Source: a virus. From it: a stretch of 64,000 nucleotides of DNA. Shown piece by piece: positions 1,418 through 57,084 of this stretch; within the stretch, counting starts at the first letter, position 1, and each line of letters starts with the position of its first letter. Position numbers and translations under genes: made by a program. Location: positions 10,819-74,818 of the IMG/VR virus record IMGVR_UViG_3300034072_000375; one strand, given 5' to 3'. The notes beneath the pieces were generated by a model, which saw only the letters and a program-made list of their open reading frames with translations, was not told the origin of the DNA and did no database searches.

Positions 1418-2440
1418 TTATCTTGCATTAGTCCCAATAGTCTTCGTAATGCAACCCAATCCGTTGCAGTGCTGGCATTCTACTACAGGTTTGTTAATCT
1501 CTAGCATCAAATCCTTCAAATATTGCTGCATGTACTCATAAAGTTCCTTCAGGCTGTTAGCTTCCCAAGGTTCAATGCAAGTATAACCTGTGTACCCACC
1601 TCCGTGGTGAGCGCCCTTCCAAGTCATCTCAAAGATTTTCTGCTGTTTTGTCGTCTTGGTTGCTGTAGTGAATCGTGGAGGTTTGTAGCTACGCATACCC
1701 GAAGTAAGTTTTTCAGTCTTTACTTCGTAGGGCTTAGTCTCAATGACTTTTTCTACTACAAAGCAAAAATCATAATTACTTGTTACACGAGCTGCCTTAC
1801 CATCAATGTTATTCAGGATGTGAGCACGGACAATCTTGTAGACTTGTTCGCTTGTCAAAGAGCAAGGACGAGTGTGCAAGAGGAAATCGGGAGTCAGCAT
1901 TCGCTCAATATCAGCAAAGACGGCAACCTTGCTCAAGTCCTGTACTTGAAGTTTACCACCGTAATTACCATCTTGAACCTGAATCTTCATTTCTGAAGGA
2001 GCTTCGTAGTTTTCGATGTGCAAGTCACGGAGTTTAACAAGTTCTACTTCCACAGGAACAATCTCTGCAGGAAGTTCGGTGCAATCCGCTTGATAGAGGC
2101 TAGCGAGACTTGCATAGGCACCATGATAAGTATATTCATCCTCATCGGAATCCCAGACTTGCTTTAATTGCCCCATGTTGAGAGCCAAAGGAATCTTATC
2201 TGAAGCAAGTTCAGGATTGATCAGCTTCCAGCCAACCTGCTCCTTCTTCGGAGGGTTGCGCTTCTTGAAGTCCTTGAGTTCACCTTCAAAATGATACCAC
2301 CCGTTGTTAGGTACAAGCGGAGTAACGTCCTTACCGTTGATTTCAACAATACCAAAATGTCCTGACAAATCGTAGTGCGAATAATATCCGTCAATCTTGA
2401 AAAATACTCCAATGTTTGTTGAGTAATATTGGATTTTCAT
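1418..2440 (-). CDS. hypothetical protein with C-terminal CxxCxGxG zinc finger
   Basis: 340 aa ORF, GGAGG RBS, C-terminal CQHCNGLG. Confidence 0.8.
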   Translation of the reverse strand: MKIQYYSTNIGVFFKIDGYYSHYDLSGHFGIVEINGKDVTPLVPNNGWYHFEGELKDFKKRNPPKKEQVGWKLINPELASDKIPLALNMGQLKQVWDSDEDEYTYHGAYASLASLYQADCTELPAEIVPVEVELVKLRDLHIENYEAPSEMKIQVQDGNYGGKLQVQDLSKVAVFADIERMLTPDFLLHTRPCSLTSEQVYKIVRAHILNNIDGKAARVTSNYDFCFVVEKVIETKPYEVKTEKLTSGMRSYKPPRFTTATKTTKQQKIFEMTWKGAHHGGGYTGYTCIEPWEANSLKELYEYMQQYLKDLMLEINKPVVECQHCNGLGCITKTIGTNAR

Positions 2441-4167: not shown

Positions 4168-4398
4168 GCACTTGTTTGAAATCTGCACTACTTATCAACT
4201 TATGTAGTGAATTTGCAACAATTGTTAAAGCACAATCTTCTTCTCAAGTACGCTCTTGTCAGTGTCCTTCCATTTGATTGACATAGGCACAGGACAATCA
4301 ATCTTGAATCTCTCCCTGAACTTGTCTGCCATTGTCAAGACTAGGAGTTCTAGGTGCTCTTTCGCTACAACGAAGCTATCATGCACACAGAGGATAGT

Positions 4399-5301
4399 CT
4401 ACCCCCAAGTTGTTAGCACTGTCAACAACTCTTTCATAACGTCTTTTCTGACTTTTAAATTATTCTTAGGGAGGACTTTCTTTTTAATACTTACTTTTCG
4501 TCTAGGTCGGGATGCTACAGCTTTCACCTCGTTTTTGGCTTTCTGCCAGTAGTTCTTTACTTTCAGCATGAAGTTTTCATCAGAGATAAGGTGCGAATAT
4601 ACACTCTTAAATTCTTCTGTAGGAAGAATCGTACTCGATTGACGAAATTTCTTTTCTTTTGAGCCTTTGCCAATAAAATTAATAAGAAGGTCCGCCTCTT
4701 CCAGCACATCAATTGCAGCATTAATTCTCAAGACGTTTGTATTTCTTCTGAGGTTTAGATGAGCACCTTTGGCCCGCGAGTAAGCAATGCACGCATCCTC
4801 TGTCAATGAGAACAGTAAGTTAGTAACGATAACACCCAACTCTAGACTATACTTAGGCCCAAATCTTCGCATACTGTTCCTCACTTCTTGCGGTATTTTA
4901 ATGTCATAAGATAGGTATCTCTGTACGCTTGCTATGGGTTTGTGCTCATTACTTGTTTCAGGTTTATTTTTATCTTTACAATCGCAAGAGTATTCTATAT
5001 TAGTTTCAGGTGGCTCAAACTCCCTCCAATCAGTAGTATTCCAGTTTCCTTTCCCATGATTGCACACGTTACACAAGACTTGTAGATTAGAAAGTTCAAG
5101 TGCGAGAGACGTATCAACTTTTCTAGGAATAATATGATCAACATGTATCTTAACATCGTTGCTAGGGAGAGGAACAGCACCACAGCACTGACAACGTTTA
5201 CCATATTTCAAGATAGCTTCCATTCTTACTTTTCTCCATTCAAACGTATCAAGAAAAGCATCTGATTTGATGTACGCATCGGTATACTTCATTTTAGTCA
5301 T
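4399..5301 (-). CDS. HNH endonuclease (McrA/gp74-like N-terminus) fused to an uncharacterised, possibly winged-helix C-terminal domain
   Basis: W...R..ILKYGKRCQCCG...HVDHIIP...NLQVLCNVCNHGK; start may be the second ATG (MKYTD) after AAGGA. Confidence 0.85.
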   Translation of the reverse strand: MTKMKYTDAYIKSDAFLDTFEWRKVRMEAILKYGKRCQCCGAVPLPSNDVKIHVDHIIPRKVDTSLALELSNLQVLCNVCNHGKGNWNTTDWREFEPPETNIEYSCDCKDKNKPETSNEHKPIASVQRYLSYDIKIPQEVRNSMRRFGPKYSLELGVIVTNLLFSLTEDACIAYSRAKGAHLNLRRNTNVLRINAAIDVLEEADLLINFIGKGSKEKKFRQSSTILPTEEFKSVYSHLISDENFMLKVKNYWQKAKNEVKAVASRPRRKVSIKKKVLPKNNLKVRKDVMKELLTVLTTWG

Positions 5302-5334
5302 CCTTATTTTAATTATTTTGAAAGACGATTAGAC

Positions 5335-5372
5335 AAAAGAAAACCCCTACAAGCCGTTAAGCTCATAGGGGT
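5335..5372 (-). terminator. Rho-independent terminator (minus strand)
   Basis: ACCCCTA...TAGGGGT stem followed by TTTTCTTTTGTCTAATC; the same tail occurs at the terminator near 36941. Confidence 0.75.
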
Positions 5373-5901
5373 AGTGCAATGGTCTAATTGTAGTGTATTC
5401 TAAGTTATACTCTTAGTTATACTTTAGTATGTTATTAACTTTATGCTCTTTGATTGAAAGCAGGCAAGGTTGAGCAACTTTAGAGGTGAAAAGAAAGTAC
5501 ACGGTGTACCCTTTCACTTCAGGTTGCTACAGCCCTAACTTGCTTTCATTCTGTCATGCTCCACGACTCGAAGGGCAGGTTATCTCGCAGTTATAACTAA
5601 AGAATCAGGGAGACAAGTCTCATGCCGTTTCTAAAGCTGTATACTTCCGTCTGCGAAATCTAGAGAGTGCTGTTGATCACTGCTTCTCTTGGTCTAGATG
5701 TATGGTTACGGTCGGGTCATTACGAGTTGCGCAACGCCTGCTAAGTTCGCTAACCTATCAAAGCTGGTTAGCTCCTACCCTGTGTATCACATTGGGTGTC
5801 GTGGGAGAGAAGACTTGGTGAATCTCATGTGTGATAGCAACTCCATGCTACCCTACCCGCAGGTTCCGAATTTGGCTATGTTGCTATTTCTAGCACATGA
5901 T
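5335..5901 (-). ncRNA. candidate large structured non-coding RNA (~565 nt)
   Basis: Bounded by a strong promoter and a terminator; no minus-strand ORF >=60 aa; many nested and long-range helices (see findings). Confidence 0.6.
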
Positions 5902-5905
5902 TGTA

Positions 5906-5934
5906 ATTTTACCACAGTCTTTCTGGAATTGCAA
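5906..5934 (-). promoter_or_regulatory. sigma70 promoter driving the candidate ncRNA
   Basis: TTGCAA-17-TAAAAT with TGTG extended -10. Confidence 0.75.
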
Positions 5935-5985
5935 GCGAAATCTTCAGAGATTGAACTGTGCCAAACAAACAACACAAATCCTTTG

Positions 5986-6015
5986 TTGACTTCTTTCACA
6001 AGTTCATGCTACACT
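5986..6015 (+). promoter_or_regulatory. rightward early promoter
   Basis: TTGACT-18-TACACT with TG extension, upstream of RBS and ORF 6044. Confidence 0.6.
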
Positions 6016-6043
6016 AAGTTTTTCAACACACAAGGAGTGAAAC

Positions 6044-6247
6044 ATGACTGACAAAGAATACGTGATCTACGCCTGCAAGACGTTCAAGTTTACCCTCCTC
6101 AAGCCAACCAAAGAATGCAAGGACATTCTCGTTATGCAGGACATTAAAGGTTTCATGAAGTGCATTGCTGAAGGTACAACATGGAAGAACATTCGTACTC
6201 AACTGAAGGATTGGCAAGAGGCGCGTTTTCCTGAAAGGGCTTTCTGA
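6044..6247 (+). CDS. hypothetical protein
   Basis: AAGGAG RBS after promoter. Confidence 0.7.
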   Translation: MTDKEYVIYACKTFKFTLLKPTKECKDILVMQDIKGFMKCIAEGTTWKNIRTQLKDWQEARFPERAF

Positions 6248-6434
6248 TGAAAAAGTACTTTATGCGTGTTGGCTTAAAGCAACAAGACGATTCAAAAACA
6301 ACTTGGGTTATTTACTCACCGAATAGGCACATCTTTTGCACAGTAGTCGGCAGGCAAAAGGCTACAAAACTCAGGAACTATTTAAACGAAGAGTTTCTTG
6401 ACGCTTGCCTGTAGCGCAGTTTCTGCGAAACCCC

Positions 6435-6463
6435 TTGACGCCCTCCTGAACTTCGTGCATAAT
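6435..6463 (+). promoter_or_regulatory. rightward early promoter
   Basis: TTGACG-17-CATAAT. Confidence 0.65.
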
Positions 6464-6498
6464 TCAACAAATCGCAACAAACAACTTAAAGGAATCAC

Positions 6499-6691
6499 TA
6501 TGAAGCTCTACGCAATCACTCGGATCACTGAAGACCACTACACATGGATGGATGTGTTTGGTGTCACACCTAATAAGAAAGTAGCAGACAAGAAAGTACA
6601 AGAGCTGCGTGAGGCTGGTCGTTACGGTGAATGGGTTGTCCAAGAATTTGAGAGTAGCGATGTGAAAAACATCACAGGGTTGGAACAATAA
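6499..6691 (+). CDS. hypothetical protein (MKLYAITR...)
   Basis: AAGGA RBS precedes an internal ATG (about 6500) of ORF 6398..6691. Confidence 0.6.
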
Positions 6692-6901
6692 ATGACCCTA
6701 TCCCAAGCCCTACCTAGTCGCATCACCCTTGCTGATGCTCTCGAATTCTCCCGTACTCTTGCAAAGCACAACCCCTTTGTTAGAATGCAACCAGAAGAGC
6801 AAGAACTAGCCAACCAAGCTGGGCCTTTGCTTAGTCGGATGGCTAACACGGAGGAGTTGGAATTTCTGATGAAGAATGAACGCTGGAATGCGTTGTTTTG
6901 A
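6692..6901 (+). CDS. hypothetical protein
   Basis: Operon packing. Confidence 0.6.
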   Translation: MTLSQALPSRITLADALEFSRTLAKHNPFVRMQPEEQELANQAGPLLSRMANTEELEFLMKNERWNALF

Positions 6902-6904
6902 AAG

Positions 6905-7360
6905 GTGAATATGAACAACTTTATTCAAAACGCTAGTAGATTTAATATCATCACTGGTCACCATGCAGACGCTGGTGAAAACTCCATGTTAATTCAAATT
7001 GTGGATTTCTTTGACACTTTCCCGACACCAAAGTACAAGTTCAAAGAAGTTCTGCAGTTTAAGTTCGATGATGTTCTGGACGGCCCTACAGCTTGTACGG
7101 ACTTACAAGCACAAGAGATTGCTAATGCACTGCAACGTGCAAAAGAGCAACACATGAATGTAATTGTGCATTGCTTTGCTGGTCTTTGTCGTAGTGGTGC
7201 TGTGGCAGAAGTAGGAATCATGCTAGGATTCAATCCTCCTGATTGCATTCGTCTTCCTAACTCTACAGTAAAGAATAAGATGCTGAAGGCTTTGGGTATG
7301 AAGATTGATGAAAGTACATCTGTGTTTGCACAGGAGTTTTATAATCGTGAGTTTGATTAA
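6905..7360 (+). CDS. protein-tyrosine/dual-specificity phosphatase-like protein
   Basis: VHCFAGLCRS = HCX5R P-loop; FDD general-acid loop. Confidence 0.85.
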   Translation: MNMNNFIQNASRFNIITGHHADAGENSMLIQIVDFFDTFPTPKYKFKEVLQFKFDDVLDGPTACTDLQAQEIANALQRAKEQHMNVIVHCFAGLCRSGAVAEVGIMLGFNPPDCIRLPNSTVKNKMLKALGMKIDESTSVFAQEFYNREFD

Positions 7361-7616: not shown

Positions 7617-8834
7617 ATGAAGAAACCGATTAGCTTTACTTGGGAAGTACGATCTGCTGTCCCCATTATTACCTTGTGGAACTACAGGGGCGAAAAAATT
7701 CATTCTTTTGCTGTCAACAACCCTCCGAAAAGTGCAGCTAAGAATCTCCTCGGAAATAACAAACGCTATCTCAAAGAAGAAGCTAAGAAGTTTAATGAAC
7801 AACACGGTATCCGTGCTACTAATGTAGTGAGGGTTGCTCGTGGTATTGTTTATAACGAAGTCTACAAGCAGTTTCCCGAGTGGTACAGACTTTGTCGCAC
7901 AACGTCATGGACACCTATGGGGCAAAGGTTTGAGTACCTAGAAACTGAAGAGCTTCTACAGCAGTGTAGAAAGGACGGTATTGCTAATATTATTCCTATT
8001 GTTGCTTATTTCAAGAAATCCCCACAGGAACTAAAGAAAACTCTCGGGGAAACTACGTGGAAGAAGTTATGCAAGAACAGTTACAGCCGCAACCGATTAT
8101 TGTTCATGAAGAGTAATGCCCGATTGACGCCTGTAGATTGGAATGTTGTGCCCAGTACAATTCTAAAAAGTAGGACGCATTTCACGCCTGAAGTCTATTC
8201 ATGGCTTATTCGTACTCAAGATATTCCTTTGAAGAATTACTCCAAGGACTATAATATTCAAAGAGAAGCTAGTATCTATATTGATACCCAACGAATGTGC
8301 ATCGGTGCTGGAGAGACTTTCAACCCTAACTGGAGTAAACGCAGAATGAAGGAAGAGCATGACCGTCTTTCTCGGATGCAACAAGAGATTGCTAACCGCC
8401 GACAAGCAGAGCGCAATGCTGAATACGCTAAACTCTTGAAGGTTGACTTCAGGGAGTTACACAAAGGTTTAGAGGTTATGGAGTTCGATTCTGGTGTTGT
8501 AGCTGTTCCATTGGTGAACATGCAGCAAGTTCAAGAGGAAGGTTCCAAGATGCATCATTGCGTAGGTAGTTATGCTAGAATGTGTGCAAAGGGTGAATAT
8601 CTTGTATGGCACTTGACCAAAGGCAGTGTTGAGACTACACTTGGAATTGCAGTACAGTGCGAGAATTACGTCATTGCAATGAGTAAAGACAAGTACAACC
8701 TTCAACAGCACTATGGATTCTGTAATGCAGCAGTAGAGGATGAAGATTTGAAGGCTGCTGCTAAGAGTGTTGTTGAGATGCTTAACAAAAAGAACAAAGA
8801 AAAAGTTATTGACAGAGAGTTAGAATCTGCTTAA
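7617..8834 (+). CDS. PcfJ-domain protein
   Basis: C-terminal EEGSKMHHCVGSY...QHYGFCN, the PcfJ-like signature. Confidence 0.8.
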   Translation: MKKPISFTWEVRSAVPIITLWNYRGEKIHSFAVNNPPKSAAKNLLGNNKRYLKEEAKKFNEQHGIRATNVVRVARGIVYNEVYKQFPEWYRLCRTTSWTPMGQRFEYLETEELLQQCRKDGIANIIPIVAYFKKSPQELKKTLGETTWKKLCKNSYSRNRLLFMKSNARLTPVDWNVVPSTILKSRTHFTPEVYSWLIRTQDIPLKNYSKDYNIQREASIYIDTQRMCIGAGETFNPNWSKRRMKEEHDRLSRMQQEIANRRQAERNAEYAKLLKVDFRELHKGLEVMEFDSGVVAVPLVNMQQVQEEGSKMHHCVGSYARMCAKGEYLVWHLTKGSVETTLGIAVQCENYVIAMSKDKYNLQQHYGFCNAAVEDEDLKAAAKSVVEMLNKKNKEKVIDRELESA

Positions 8835-10836: not shown

Positions 10837-11694
10837 ATGCTGAATACCTATGAACAAATGCTTGATCTTGTAAATCAGAAACTTGCGACTGTTTCTGTCA
10901 ATGGGAACTTGTCTACTTTTAAGTACGCCAAACGTGTAATGTTTGATTATCTTTGGGACACCAATCCGTTGCTATCGGAGTGCAGAGGTCACACATATGA
11001 CAACACCACAGGAGAGATTGTAGTTGCTGCTCCGACTAAGAGTTTCAACTATCTAGAGAACAATTGGGGTCGAGAACTACAACCTGATACGAAAGTTCAG
11101 ATTGCTAAGAAGTACAACGGCTTCCTTGCTTGTGTATCTAAACATGAAGGTGAAATCGTAGTCAGCACAACTGGAAGCACTAAGTCTGAATTCGTAGTAA
11201 TGGCTAAGAGTTTGATGCCTTGTTCTGATCCAGATGTTTATGATTCTTCTGTTACAGATTTCTATGAAATTATCCACGAAGATGATCCTCACATTGTAGA
11301 CGAGGGTAAGTTCCGTGCTGAGTGGTTAGGTTGCCGGGATAAGTCAAGCGGAGAAATTCTTGCTTGGGCAGGTCTTTCTGATTTTATGACGCGAGATGAG
11401 GCACTTCAAGTTGCAGCGAACGACAAGGGAGAAGGTTTCATGATGTATGCCGAAGGTGATTATAGTAAAGCGTTCAAATTGAAGACTCCTTATTACTTAG
11501 GCAAGAAAAAACTAATGCGAATGTCCAAAAACAACGTAGATACAATGTACAAGTTACCTAAGACCGTGATAGAATCACTTCCTGAAATGTGGAAACACCT
11601 TCCTGAAATTATTACTGTTATGTTTAGCAAGGAAGAATGGATTGAAATGAACGACCAAGAACGACGAAAGTTTCTTGAGGCTATTGTTAATTAA
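10837..11694 (+). CDS. RNA ligase (Rnl1-like)
   Basis: ECRG, KSFNYLE, KYNG (motif I), EII, EGF, KLK; adjacent to PNK. Confidence 0.8.
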   Translation: MLNTYEQMLDLVNQKLATVSVNGNLSTFKYAKRVMFDYLWDTNPLLSECRGHTYDNTTGEIVVAAPTKSFNYLENNWGRELQPDTKVQIAKKYNGFLACVSKHEGEIVVSTTGSTKSEFVVMAKSLMPCSDPDVYDSSVTDFYEIIHEDDPHIVDEGKFRAEWLGCRDKSSGEILAWAGLSDFMTRDEALQVAANDKGEGFMMYAEGDYSKAFKLKTPYYLGKKKLMRMSKNNVDTMYKLPKTVIESLPEMWKHLPEIITVMFSKEEWIEMNDQERRKFLEAIVN

Positions 11695-11704
11695 GGAGTA
11701 CAAT

Positions 11705-12283
11705 GTGACAACCTATATGACCTCGGATTTGCACTTTTACCATAAGAACATTTGCAAGTTCACAGATCGACACAAGGTAGTCCAGCAAGAGCAACACGAA
11801 GAGTGGTTGATTGACATTTGGAATAATACTTGCACGAAATCTGATAAGGTATGGCATTTAGGTGATTTTACTTTTCTGTCCAGGTACGAAGAAATTGCTG
11901 CACTTGTAAAGAAACTACCGGGTCAGAAGTTCTTCATCAAGGGTAATCATGATCGTACAAAGGTTTTGGATGCTTTGAAGAAAGACGGATTGATTCAAAA
12001 TTGGTATCATTACGAAGAAATCAAGATTGGTGAAACACCTGCGTGTTTGTTTCACTTTCCTATTGCGTCATGGCACAAAGTAGGTTATGGTGCTTGGCAC
12101 CTCCACGGCCATTCTCACGGGTCATATAAAGTCGAGCAAGGGAAAATCCTTGACGTAGGAATTGATAGCGCGTATAATTTATACGGTGAACACAAGTTCT
12201 TCTCGGAAGAAGATATCATAGAGTACATGAGCAACCGACAGATTAAAACTGTAGATCATCACCGAATTGTTGAAAAGGACTAA
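11705..12283 (+). CDS. calcineurin-like metallophosphoesterase
   Basis: SDLHF, LGD, GNHD, HFP, HGHSH; GTG start after AAGGAG. Confidence 0.9.
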   Translation: MTTYMTSDLHFYHKNICKFTDRHKVVQQEQHEEWLIDIWNNTCTKSDKVWHLGDFTFLSRYEEIAALVKKLPGQKFFIKGNHDRTKVLDALKKDGLIQNWYHYEEIKIGETPACLFHFPIASWHKVGYGAWHLHGHSHGSYKVEQGKILDVGIDSAYNLYGEHKFFSEEDIIEYMSNRQIKTVDHHRIVEKD

Positions 12284-55393: not shown

Positions 55394-55819
55394 TTAGAAC
55401 CTCCAGCCTACTGTAAATGGCCCTGTTTGATGCAAGGATTCTGTCTTACCGGGGTTCTCTACGATGTTGTTATCTAGGTCAGCATTGTTGGCTTCCATAT
55501 CGGAGATGGAGACGCCTCCAACGTAGCCTTTGAGGTTATTGTACAAAGGGTTCAGTTGTGGGTTCTTAATATACAACTCAAGAGCAAGACGATATTGTTC
55601 AGCGGCTTTAGACCCACGTACCGAAAACACGTCCACGGTCTCGTCCGTGCGTTGCGAAAGCAAGAGTAAAATAATGCGGGCTGCGTCTACTGCAGCCCTA
55701 ACTACTGAGTTGTTATGTTTCAGGAGCAGGTAGTCATAGTCCGCATCTGAAAGAAGTGGAAAGGCCTGATCCAGATCGGCCACTTCCAATTTAACCTGTT
55801 GAATTAGCGTGTATGCCAT
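55394..55819 (-). CDS. head-tail adaptor protein
   Basis: V.LE..D....LLSD..Y.Y.L; synteny after the capsid gene. Confidence 0.7.
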   Translation of the reverse strand: MAYTLIQQVKLEVADLDQAFPLLSDADYDYLLLKHNNSVVRAAVDAARIILLLLSQRTDETVDVFSVRGSKAAEQYRLALELYIKNPQLNPLYNNLKGYVGGVSISDMEANNADLDNNIVENPGKTESLHQTGPFTVGWRF

Positions 55820-56990
55820 TTAATATTTTACCTATTTTACCGACAACGCCTGCTTCAAACCATTCATTTATTCCGTCTGATTTCCCTCTCGGGGTTATAC
55901 GGTTAGAAAATTTTTCTGCTTCTTTTGGCGAAATTTTGTATGGAGAAAATGCTTTATGAAATAACTTTTCAATTTCATCTGCTTCTTTTCTGGTTTGGAA
56001 CTTCCCTAGCACAAATACAGAAGATTCTCCGCTAAGTTTCAAAATTCTGCGCCTTTGTTCAGGGTCAATTGCCGTACCTATTTTACAATAAGTTTTGTTT
56101 TCAAAATAAACTAGCATTGCATAAACACAAGTAGGAGAACCCCATGTACCTTTGTCTAGATGGCCTCTTTTCTTGTCCATGAAATGACTAACTGTTACAG
56201 TTTTCTTAGCACCATTCGGTAGCTCTACCGTAACGGTTTGTTCAGTATCACTATAGTCCACTAGAGAAGCGCTCTCTTTTGCAATACGTGCTTCGAATGC
56301 AAGTCTTTTACAATTTATACAGCGAGTCCCATCATATTCTTTTTGAAAATCATTTCTTCTGAAGTAACCACATTTCGTGCAGCGGCACAGTGTATGATTT
56401 TCTCCTGTCTGCAGAACCTCAAAATATGCTTGCCGTCTCGCTGTTTTAATTACCCGCTTATCGCAGTTTGCACATTGAAGTTTTAATCTAAAAACAGAGG
56501 AGTAATCTTTTATTGTTCTAGTATCACCGCAAGTTTTACAAATTACTTTAAACCGAACTCCTTGGATATTTTCTACAGCATAGTTATGTGTATCCAGATG
56601 CTCTATGCAGGCAATTTTCTTACACTCAACACAGTCTGCTGGTGTTTTAGTTGCCATCTGCGAGGTGTATCTTTTTAAAGAGTTGCAACCGGAACATTTG
56701 AAATGAATATACCCATCACTTTCGTATAAAAACTTATAAGTTGACTTCGAAAGAGTTTGCTCAATCTTTATAATTGAGCACACAGGGCAAGTTGGTAGTG
56801 ATTTGTACTTAGTAGTAAATTTTTGCAAAAAGCAAGTGTTGCAGTTTTTGCAATGCAAACCTAGAGAGAACTCTCTTGTGTCTGGATCAACGACCTCATA
56901 ATCCTTTACGACAGTGAAATCACTTTCCTTGAGTTGTTTAAGTCTATTTGAGATTAAATAGTCTATAGACTTAAGTCGAATTCTCTTCAT
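55791..56990 (-). CDS. multi-Zn-ribbon protein with C-terminal GIY-YIG (T5orf172/MUG113-like) nuclease
   Basis: About eight CxxC pairs; CVYAM...YCKIGTA..PEQR...EIEKLFH...G.NEWF. Confidence 0.8.
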   Translation of the reverse strand: MKRIRLKSIDYLISNRLKQLKESDFTVVKDYEVVDPDTREFSLGLHCKNCNTCFLQKFTTKYKSLPTCPVCSIIKIEQTLSKSTYKFLYESDGYIHFKCSGCNSLKRYTSQMATKTPADCVECKKIACIEHLDTHNYAVENIQGVRFKVICKTCGDTRTIKDYSSVFRLKLQCANCDKRVIKTARRQAYFEVLQTGENHTLCRCTKCGYFRRNDFQKEYDGTRCINCKRLAFEARIAKESASLVDYSDTEQTVTVELPNGAKKTVTVSHFMDKKRGHLDKGTWGSPTCVYAMLVYFENKTYCKIGTAIDPEQRRRILKLSGESSVFVLGKFQTRKEADEIEKLFHKAFSPYKISPKEAEKFSNRITPRGKSDGINEWFEAGVVGKIGKILNGIHANSTG

Positions 56991-57003: not shown

Positions 57004-57071
57004 TACCCACTAAGCAACAAATGGCAGGACTGGTGGATAGTCAGTCTTTTCGCTCCGTCGAGCTAGCCATT
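57004..57071 (-). ncRNA. structured 5' leader (three-way junction with possible pseudoknot)
   Basis: AATGGC/GCCATT, GCTC-GACG-GAGC, GACTG/CAGTC; loop TATCCAC complementary to GTGGGTA next to the SD. Confidence 0.55.
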
Positions 57072-57084
57072 GTCTAAAATTAGA

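Follow-up and report, generated by a model that had tools for sequence, protein, structure and literature searches.

A candidate family of phage long non-coding RNAs headed by a conserved, covarying two-hairpin element

The DNA analysed here, referred to as the window, is a stretch of 64,000 nucleotides from a viral record (IMG/VR IMGVR_UViG_3300034072_000375). Positions 5335-5934 of its minus strand are best read as an autonomous non-coding gene with its own promoter, a folded RNA and a terminator. The sigma70-type promoter has an extended -10 element (TTGCAA-17-TG-TAAAAT, 5906-5934) and matches the consensus at 9 of 12 positions; the predicted transcription start lies near 5899. An intrinsic terminator at 5335-5372 is formed by a 13-bp stem (5372-5343) followed by a U tract. 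Both features had been pointed out in a preliminary description of this DNA and were confirmed. The candidate RNA between them (5335-5899, about 565 nt) is ORF-free and strongly folded. In agreement with the earlier claim that no minus-strand ORF of at least 60 aa is present, the longest ORFs on this strand between promoter and terminator have 48 and 34 aa. The sole long ORF of the plus strand (117 aa, 5698-6051) has no counterpart in the other lineages described below. Antisense coding was rejected, since the frame in which opposite-strand ORFs cross the conserved element is not the same in the window as in L089/L105. The predicted fold of 5335-5900 on the minus strand has an energy of -164.8 kcal/mol, compared with -138.5 ± 6.6 kcal/mol for 100 shuffled sequences (z -3.98), and none of the shuffles equalled it, so that the comparison with shuffled controls proposed earlier came out in favour of a structured RNA. 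All helices named in the preliminary description are complementary in sequence and the minimum free energy fold holds them, except for the 5′ helix (5880-5887 with 5834-5841 and 5894-5900 with 5825-5831). This helix is not conserved and competes with a hairpin (5846-5852 with 5833-5839) that is backed by covariation.

Searches of the window with the Rfam 15 models gave one match, int-alpA at 57006-57073, and none at the RNA. For the region 5200-6100, nothing meaningful was obtained at E values up to 10, including ROOL, GOLLD, HEARO, group I and group II introns, tmRNA, RNase P and C4/CI. The homologous loci L089 and L099 did not match Rfam models either, no tRNA or tmRNA parts were found, and a blastn search of 50,697 phage records with this region returned zero matches. 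Judged from these searches, the best reading is that the RNA family is not among the Rfam 15 families and has not been described before.

Near its 5′ end the RNA carries a conserved element on the minus strand, defined by an alignment (A3) and pair counts. The alignment covers 62 nt (5797-5858), with a core of 46 nt at 5807-5852. A hairpin of 7 bp (P1, 5846-5852 with 5833-5839) encloses the hexaloop UGGAGU (5840-5845), which reads NGGAGN across the lineages. It is followed by a linker, ACACAU (5827-5832), that is fixed across the family, and by a hairpin of 4 bp (P2, 5823-5826 with 5807-5810) with the 12-nt loop UUCACCAAGUCU (5811-5822). The 11 pairs of P1 and P2 form in all five lineages (55 of 55 pair cells are standard), with two-sided changes in 8 of them, and a control with slid partners paired only 47-55%. 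RNAalifold recovers the same two hairpins. The covariation among homologues that had been named as a check on the RNA is present in these two hairpins. A model of the element (R1) scores its members at 75-85 bits and nothing above 17 bits elsewhere; with it, G000 and the complete genome G004 each show one copy of the element, and the sister phages none. The 12-nt loop is invariant among the five lineages; because three members came from a pattern search that required the loop, its invariance is independent only for the window versus L089. Further matches of the pattern scan (L090-L095, L097, L098, L101, L102 and L106, as well as L110, L112, L114-L120 and L127-L132) were discarded as chance, being mostly ordinary gene starts or coding sequence. 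Within the RNAs and the phage genome, partners complementary to the loop occur no more often than expected by chance, and a literature search on the loop sequence yielded unrelated papers only.

The five lineages with the element are the window group, L089/L105, L099, L111 and L113. In the four lineages other than the window group, it heads ORF-free, hairpin-rich units of 0.39-1.17 kb, and a promoter scoring 9-11 of 12 is found at the equivalent position. The distance to the promoter is short in every copy, 24-50 nt behind the -10 element. The bodies that follow differ by lineage (0.3-1.1 kb) and usually have an AT-rich tract plus a strong terminator at their end. Strong terminators close the units in four of the five lineages, and the terminator of L089 is homologous to that of the window, with compensating changes in the stem. 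When the bodies were tested against shuffled sequences, four of the five lineages gave z scores of -3.98 (window), -3.83, -6.51 and -9.33. The 748 nt of L111 fold no better than shuffles (z -0.78), and a strong terminator is absent there. Alignment of the bodies between lineages, global as well as local, gave noise outside the 46-nt element; a tentative AGAAAC block was dropped, as it is not retained in L105. The bodies of L089 and L105 have diverged by about 4.5%, with substitutions that do not preserve the predicted pairs, so this part of the RNA may be dispensable. The context is a divergent junction in the window and a co-directional arrangement behind a phosphatase-like gene in L105, and same-direction genes lie downstream in four of the five lineages (window, L089, L099 and L111). 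Using the PcfJ neighbour as an anchor, a single relative (L082) was found, which ends 140 nt short of the RNA. The earlier suggestion of a novel large phage non-coding RNA is strengthened by the homologues in four other lineages, the two covarying hairpins and the negative Rfam result. Like ROOL and GOLLD, the RNA is phage-borne, hundreds of nucleotides long, ORF-free and highly structured. However, ROOL and GOLLD have large conserved cores, whereas here only 46 nt are conserved, the body varies and no Rfam model matches at E values up to 10.

Within the window group, the RNA is considerably better conserved than its neighbour. Compared with the close relatives L103, L104 and L107, the RNA has diverged by 0.35-0.53% and the adjoining HNH ORF by 2.5-4.7%, that is, the RNA is 5-9 times less diverged (p 1e-5 to 1e-7 versus third codon positions). 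The differences in the HNH gene fall mostly on third codon positions. The RNA region also recurs nearly letter for letter in metatranscriptome contigs (X15, X17, X19 and X20) that come from four runs of three studies. These contigs carry no strand, end or level information, their depths are not comparable between genes, and those from three runs stop at 5953-5955, where strains diverge, which makes them uninformative on the start site; they lend the RNA weak support.

Behind the terminator lies a minus-strand gene (4399-5301) for an HNH endonuclease fused to a copy of a phrog_4756-type N-terminal domain, as assigned by Pfam and alignment. The preliminary description was right about a 300-aa protein with an intact HNH domain (Pfam HNH, residues 37-86, E 9e-9). 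The C-terminal domain, which it had left unassigned, can be placed: residues 128-300 match positions 5-180 in a 414-aa polymerase-like family (35% identity, E 3e-25). By Pfam, the protein contains no RuvC or other IscB-like parts and consists of HNH plus a DNA-binding-type domain only. The intact family (P0008, 414 aa) matches phrog_4756 (E 3e-57), and its predicted fold (pLDDT 83) resembles family-A DNA polymerases (Foldseek E 5e-6). phrog_4756 is widespread in T5-like Vibrio and Aeromonas phages. A full-length phrog_4756 protein of ~414 aa is absent from the window. Only the last 57 codons of such a gene are left, including the VHDSFVV motif, at 4225-4398 on the minus strand, following the TAG stop that ends the HNH gene and in frame with it; this remnant is 81% identical to residues 347-414 of P0008. 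The sister phages L083 and L084 carry an intact polymerase-like gene at this site, without HNH gene and without RNA, and the similarity to L084 ends at 5956/5957, which marks the upstream border of the replaced segment. In the set of related phages, the RNA-bearing pair (the genomes of the window and of L089) has lost the polymerase-like gene, and the reverse holds for L083 and L084. As shown by comparison of these genomes, a cassette of RNA and HNH gene replaced most of the polymerase-like gene, and the alignment indicates that in the window lineage the HNH nuclease has borrowed the DNA-binding-type end of that gene.

We rejected two other origins of the locus. A decayed polymerase-like gene does not account for the RNA, which has stops in all frames, and in tblastn the family proteins did not match the RNA region of the near-identical L103 and L107. 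A group I intron carrying an HNH homing endonuclease was likewise dismissed: no intron model matches, the polymerase-like gene has kept just its 3′ end, and the sequence upstream of 5957 is a divergent promoter region and not an exon. The HNH gene itself has the properties of a free-standing homing endonuclease, namely an HNH catalytic domain and presence or absence at one site in close relatives. Phages carry free-standing HNH homing endonuclease cassettes of the T4 seg/mob type, and the gene resembles these in being present or absent at one site, behind a terminator, and in replacing resident sequence. Unlike them, it encodes a nuclease joined to a remote version (35% identity) of the displaced gene's own N-terminal domain, and it is accompanied by a separate gene for a non-coding RNA.

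We tentatively favour, at a probability of roughly 0.4, a new family of long non-coding RNAs made early by phages, whose 5′ element serves as a handle for a conserved factor. This reading builds on the anatomy of the unit, its homologues, the covariation of both hairpins, the independence from the HNH gene and the replacement of the polymerase-like gene, all established by sequence comparison. It further supposes that the RNA would accumulate as a discrete species, that the handle would bind a factor and that the RNA would act in trans. The host RNA polymerase would transcribe the RNA early. A conserved factor would then bind the handle, and a host component is a likelier partner than a phage protein, because the handle is unchanged in phages without common neighbouring genes. 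The stable body and the terminator hairpin would protect the RNA and carry lineage-specific content, and the RNA would act by itself, without the HNH nuclease as partner. Points against a stand-alone RNA are that only 46 nt are alignable, that the fold and terminator of L111 are weak, and that the same-direction genes fit a leader.

Such a cis-acting leader is a possible explanation, which we regard as doubtful. The two-hairpin element would modify the host RNA polymerase or block Rho, as put or the rrn leader do, and the polymerase could then pass through the long untranslated stretch and the terminator into the early genes, here the HNH gene plus a leftward accessory operon. RNA of 565 nt ending at the terminator would arise as a by-product, comparable to the short pR′ transcript of lambda. 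This is consistent with the position of the element, which is always promoter-proximal, with strong terminators after it and, in the window, L089, L099 and L111, co-directional genes downstream. No promoter was found between the terminator and the HNH start, the body of the L089 lineage evolves freely, and invariance across unrelated phages suits a host target such as RNA polymerase. In phage HK022, putL and putR, one behind each of the two early promoters, are cis-acting antiterminator RNAs (put is ~70 nt long, with two stem-loops, and is found just downstream of PL) that work without a phage protein, polymerase read-through being mediated via the beta′ zinc-binding domain (PMC9378689). The feature in common with put is a short two-stem-loop element just after an early sigma70 promoter, followed by terminators. 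As put needs no phage protein, a similar mode of action would explain an element that is unchanged in phages without common genes. On the other hand, put and nut are paired to serve two operons, whereas the R1 element is present once per genome, and the put stems are long and bulged, whereas the stems here are perfect and short, with one large 12-nt loop. Additionally, 0.4-1.2 kb of highly structured sequence free of ORFs follow the element, a costly spacer for a compact phage. Within the window group, conservation is strong over the entire RNA, and the downstream genes possess their own promoter-like sites at 4425-4396 and 4167-4140.

An origin-priming transcript was the alternative raised in the preliminary description. 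It seems unlikely that the locus is a transcription-activated or transcript-primed replication origin, in which a constitutive promoter would drive a structured RNA into an AT-rich repeat tract for duplex opening or priming. The cassette would then be a replicon module replacing one built on the mini polymerase-like protein. Origins of these kinds are known from ColE1 (RNA II) and from T7 and T4. They resemble the present locus in the order of promoter, structured transcript of ~550 nt and AT-rich tract, and in the combination of a strand switch, a skew minimum and a T7-type primase-helicase. The tract (5380-5445, minus strand; 80% A+T over 60 nt) contains 2.6 copies of a 12-nt tandem repeat, GTATAACTNAGA, at 5399-5428. 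Copy number differs between strains, as L100 and L108 lack exactly one unit (5412-5423). In L111 an 11-nt unit is repeated 7.5 times and has the GTATAAC core of the window repeat, and AT-rich 60-mers (78-83% A+T) are also found in L089, L099 and L113. Moreover, the locus lies at the cumulative GC-skew minimum (4-6 kb) and a strand switch, the phage encodes a T7-type primase-helicase and no initiator that could be recognised, and RNA and intact polymerase-like gene exclude each other in the four related phages. However, the skew minimum coincides with the switch of coding strand and is therefore confounded, no DnaA boxes were found, and the features are not uniform across lineages, the repeat motif of the window and L111 being absent from L089 and L113. 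An antisense regulator as in the known systems is absent here, and the cassette sits in a different context in L105. The conserved part is a 5′ RNA fold, whose covariation reflects selection on pairing of RNA (or a single strand), which an origin does not need.

A start site for translation of a tiny peptide appears more improbable still. The GGAG of the P1 loop would be a Shine-Dalgarno sequence and the linker AUG would open an ORF of 11-32 codons (M-x-F-T-K-S-x-L...), whose translation, or a bound ribosome, would stabilise or regulate the RNA. In the window the candidate micro-ORF has 13 codons (MRFTKSSLPRHPM, 5787-5828, minus strand). In each of the five lineages, GGAG stands 12 nt upstream of the AUG and codon 8 encodes Leu, with three different bases at its third position. 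An in-frame 3-nt indel separates L105 from L089, and three lineages have a similar R-(D/H)-P ending of the ORF. Yet a spacing of 12 nt is long for a ribosome-binding site, and only M-x-F-T-K-S-x-L is common to the lineages, with neither ORF length nor the rest of the peptide conserved. Codons 2 and 7 covary as base pairs of the RNA while their amino acids vary freely, codons 3-6 are identical at each base between the window and L089, which was found independently of the loop pattern, and a common GCGUGA block lies in another frame in L113. Judged by this pattern of substitutions, the micro-ORF is probably not the selected feature.

A scaffold or guide RNA forming a ribonucleoprotein with the HNH-fusion nuclease, as the preliminary description had envisaged by analogy with HEARO/OMEGA, is highly improbable: RNA and HNH gene are neighbours with the same orientation in the window, L103, L104, L107 and L108, but the element stands without any HNH gene alongside in L089, L105, L111 and L113 (L099 has only a weak, sub-threshold HNH_3 match, in a divergent neighbour), R1 finds no element in 676 kb around 80 IMG/VR loci of HNH relatives, which share only the N-terminal HNH domain and show no RNA similarity, and a strong terminator separates RNA and gene. 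The proposed co-occurrence thus failed in both directions. IscB with its omega RNA also pairs a structured RNA with an HNH-domain ORF, but IscB has a RuvC domain split by HNH, which is lacking in the present protein; here RNA and nuclease gene occur apart, neither HEARO nor any other Rfam model matches, and the conserved part is tiny and located at the 5′ end.

To our knowledge, few phage non-coding RNAs are understood, and most large ones are known by conserved cores. The favoured early non-coding RNA would have a different design, in which a tiny, strictly conserved and covarying 5′ element precedes long, fast-changing, stable bodies in unrelated phages. That the element stays constant while its surroundings change points to a conserved partner in the cell and provides a handle for pull-down. 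We consider it speculative, and on present evidence unlikely, that a universal 46-nt handle docks onto a core host machine (RNA polymerase, ribosome or RNA chaperone) and that interchangeable bodies confer lineage-specific functions, with the RNA gene functionally replacing a mini family-A polymerase-like enzyme in this phage group, for example as an RNA primer or regulator. The locus nevertheless presents a natural swap, in which sister phages carry either the small polymerase-like gene (phrog_4756) or the RNA cassette, and it yields testable ideas on the roles of the polymerase-like protein and the RNA in early infection.

The RNA gene lies in a siphovirus-type phage (an IMG/VR virus record of 74.8 kb, of which the window covers bases 10819-74818) encoding a 1879-aa tape measure protein, a T7-type primase-helicase with 55-57% identity to its counterparts in Curvibacter phage P26059A and Limnohabitans phage DC31, a ribonucleotide reductase and a homologue of Gad1. 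As genes run leftward left of 5301 and rightward from 6044, the RNA locus falls within a divergent gap of 742 nt (5302-6043). Its DNA has no match among catalogued phages. The preliminary description had placed here a structured, ORF-free RNA with its own promoter and terminator next to an HNH gene, and this observation proved correct. A leftward promoter (TTGCAA-17-TAAAAT with an upstream TG, 5934-5906) and a terminator with a 13-bp stem (5372-5343) followed by a T run enclose a region in which stops occur throughout all six frames and the longest minus-strand ORFs comprise 48 and 34 aa. The 566-nt RNA is predicted to fold with -164.8 kcal/mol, compared to -138.5 ± 6.6 kcal/mol for dinucleotide shuffles (z = -3.98). 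A search of Rfam 15 returned no family at gathering scores and only noise up to E = 10, and the gene at 4399-5301 (-) carries a clear HNH domain.

Several other features were observed in this phage. The RNA cassette heads a leftward operon whose far end holds the homologue of Gad1, a Gabija anti-defence protein (1418-2440, minus strand; Pfam E 1.6e-57). The rightward early operon encodes a PcfJ-like protein (7617-8834, plus strand; Pfam E 1.7e-16) with 90% identity in contig L082. Within 10837-12283 (+), a weak T4-type RNA ligase match (28.2 bits, just below the Pfam cut-off of 28.3) precedes a calcineurin-like phosphoesterase match that is weak and below threshold, a pair that looks like an RNA repair module. 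An int-alpA RNA match (57006-57073, minus strand; 42.8 bits versus a gathering score of 35.8 in Rfam) adjoins a T5orf172/MUG113-domain protein (55791-56990).

Comparison of the window RNA with its homologue in L089, a locus from a complete 87-kb phage genome, revealed a single common block of 45 nt. Pattern scans seeded from this block yielded members in three further lineages (L099, L111 and L113) as well as near-identical copies of the window RNA (L100, L103, L104, L107 and L108) and of the L089 RNA (L105); other matches were dismissed as chance. A gap-free alignment of the five distinct sequences covers 62 nt. On the minus strand, a 7-bp stem P1 (5846-5852 with 5833-5839) with the hexaloop NGGAGN is connected by the linker ACACAU to a 4-bp stem P2 (5823-5826 with 5807-5810) with the 12-nt loop UUCACCAAGUCU. 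Because the loop was fixed in the search pattern for L099, L111 and L113, only the window and L089 provide independent evidence of its invariance. Covariation among homologues was found in P1 and P2 across the five lineages: all 55 pair cells hold standard pairs and both sides have changed in 8 of the 11 pairs, compared to 47-55% pairing and at most one doubly changed pair when the partners were slid by 1-3 columns. RNAalifold, run on an alignment of its own, gave the same two hairpins. The helix that had been proposed for the 5′ end is unconserved and occupies the linker and the 3′ arm of P1. A covariance model of the element (R1) scores the members at 75-85 bits; the window's record and that of L089 each contain a single copy. 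No match to R1 was observed in sister phages with an intact polymerase-like gene, in three further relatives and two cultured Comamonadaceae phages, or across the 676 kb surrounding HNH relatives. A stretch of 21 nt identical to part of the element (CACATGGCATTCACCAAGTCT) occurs, after a GGAG, where a capsid-like gene begins in Leucobacter-type prophages (L098:1628-1647, L116 and L117); given the database size, this likeness is probably due to chance.

In every lineage, a sigma70-type promoter (9-11 of 12 positions) lies 24-50 nt upstream of the element and hairpin-rich sequence without ORFs lies downstream; outside the element, alignment between lineages was not possible. The unit comprises ~565 nt in the window (fold z -3.98), ~560 nt in L113 (-6.51) and ~390 nt in L089 (-3.83), each with a strong terminator. 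The longest member (L099:2165-3335, minus strand) spans ~1170 nt (z -9.33 over 936 nt), with an 11-bp terminator followed by nine T, very long near-perfect hairpins and no ORF above 57 aa; in its divergent neighbour, HNH_3 matches only weakly, below threshold. L111 has 748 nt up to the next gene (z -0.78) and only a weak terminator ~285 nt in. In L105 the cassette is co-directional, behind a phosphatase-like gene, with no divergent junction. The data define an autonomous cassette in which a promoter and the conserved 5′ element precede a variable structured body and a terminator.

Evidence for constraint on the body is mixed. The window RNA differs from its close relatives L103, L104 and L107 at 2-3 of 566 positions, and from L100 and L108 by ~2.8%, mainly because one 12-nt repeat unit is missing. 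The adjacent HNH ORF diverges by 2.5-4.7%, chiefly at third codon positions (Fisher test, RNA versus third codon positions, p = 3e-5 to 1e-7). Between L089 and L105 the body differs by ~4.5% without regard to predicted pairs and the element is identical, so that long-term constraint is demonstrable for the element only. The proposal of a novel large phage ncRNA is strengthened by the homologues, the covarying element and the lack of an Rfam match. Contigs from four metatranscriptome runs (three studies) contain the RNA region with 0-2 differences (5435-5953, 5507-5955, 5569-5922 and 5536-5955), are uninformative on strand, ends and level, and may reflect DNA carry-over. Their common stop near 5955 is the point of strain divergence. 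In contigs from runs X15 and X17, position 5906 is followed by unknown letters and then by 5249, a hint that some strains combine this promoter and HNH gene with a different RNA body or none.

A search with the read-through protein across the TAG stop of the HNH gene returned two groups, HNH fusions of ~297 aa like that of the window and a family of 411-429 aa without a Pfam domain (phrog_4756). The last 68 residues of this family show 81% identity to window 4225-4428, whereas its first ~175 residues show 35% identity to the C-terminal domain of the HNH fusion, previously left unassigned. In its AlphaFold model (pLDDT 83), a winged-helix-like domain at the N terminus is joined to a compact fold similar to that of family-A DNA polymerases (Foldseek E 5e-6, with matches to apicoplast, Bst and Taq polymerases), and the sequence has a VHDSFVV motif. 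Members also occur in T5-like phages of Vibrio and Aeromonas, and the protein may serve as a minimal polymerase or primase. The sister phages L083 and L084 carry the intact gene (6001-7242 in each) directly after the divergent promoter region, with neither RNA nor HNH gene at this site. Therefore, RNA gene and HNH fusion together (window ~5956-4398) have taken the place of the resident gene's first five-sixths. The last 57 codons (4225-4398) remain in frame after the TAG stop (4399-4401); a promoter-like site (4425-4396, 10/12) extends across the junction, as does an alignment to the close relative L103 (residues 6-358). The 35% versus 81% identity indicates that the domain fused to HNH derived from a distant relative and rules out in-place decay of the resident gene as its source. 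At the equivalent site, L089 has a promoter, ~390 ORF-free nt and a homologous terminator, directly followed by the last 34 codons of the polymerase-like gene.

The main alternative, a possible if tentative one, is a cis-acting leader of put or rrn type, which would enable RNA polymerase to read through the untranslated stretch and the terminator. HK022 put likewise consists of two stem-loops directly downstream of an early promoter (PMC9378689). However, put occurs as a pair and differs in shape, whereas the phage element is single-copy in the two records examined. A transcript-primed origin is unlikely. It would fit the T7-type replication genes, the mutual exclusion of cassette and polymerase-like gene, a GC-skew minimum at 4-6 kb that is confounded by the strand switch, and the AT-rich repeats: four lineages have a tract of 78-83% A+T over 60 nt toward the 3′ end, which in the window holds 2.6 copies of a 12-nt unit (two close relatives are short of exactly one unit), and L111:7822-7917, ~320 nt downstream of the RNA start, is an iteron-like tandem array of 7.5 copies of the 11-nt unit AGCTGACGTAT (alternatively 4.2 copies of 23 nt) sharing a GTATAAC core with the window repeat. 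However, DnaA boxes are absent and RNA covariation close to the 5′ end is left unexplained. Still less probable is the start site of a micro-ORF, despite a GGAG 12 nt ahead of an AUG and a common peptide M-x-F-T-K-S-x-L, as codons 2 and 7 covary as base pairs with varying amino acids and the remaining peptide is unconserved. The earlier suggestion of an RNP with the adjacent HNH protein is very improbable, being contradicted by the protein content of the fusion and by distribution: L089 has the RNA at the equivalent site and no HNH gene, and the best 80 IMG/VR loci (676 kb) with the common HNH N-terminal domain hold nothing RNA-like and no R1 match.

The cassette is found in some phages and is missing from their sister phages. 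Our preferred reading, to which we assign a probability of roughly 40%, is that it represents a new family of early phage long non-coding RNAs, in which the conserved 5′ element would act as a handle bound by a conserved factor, probably from the host.
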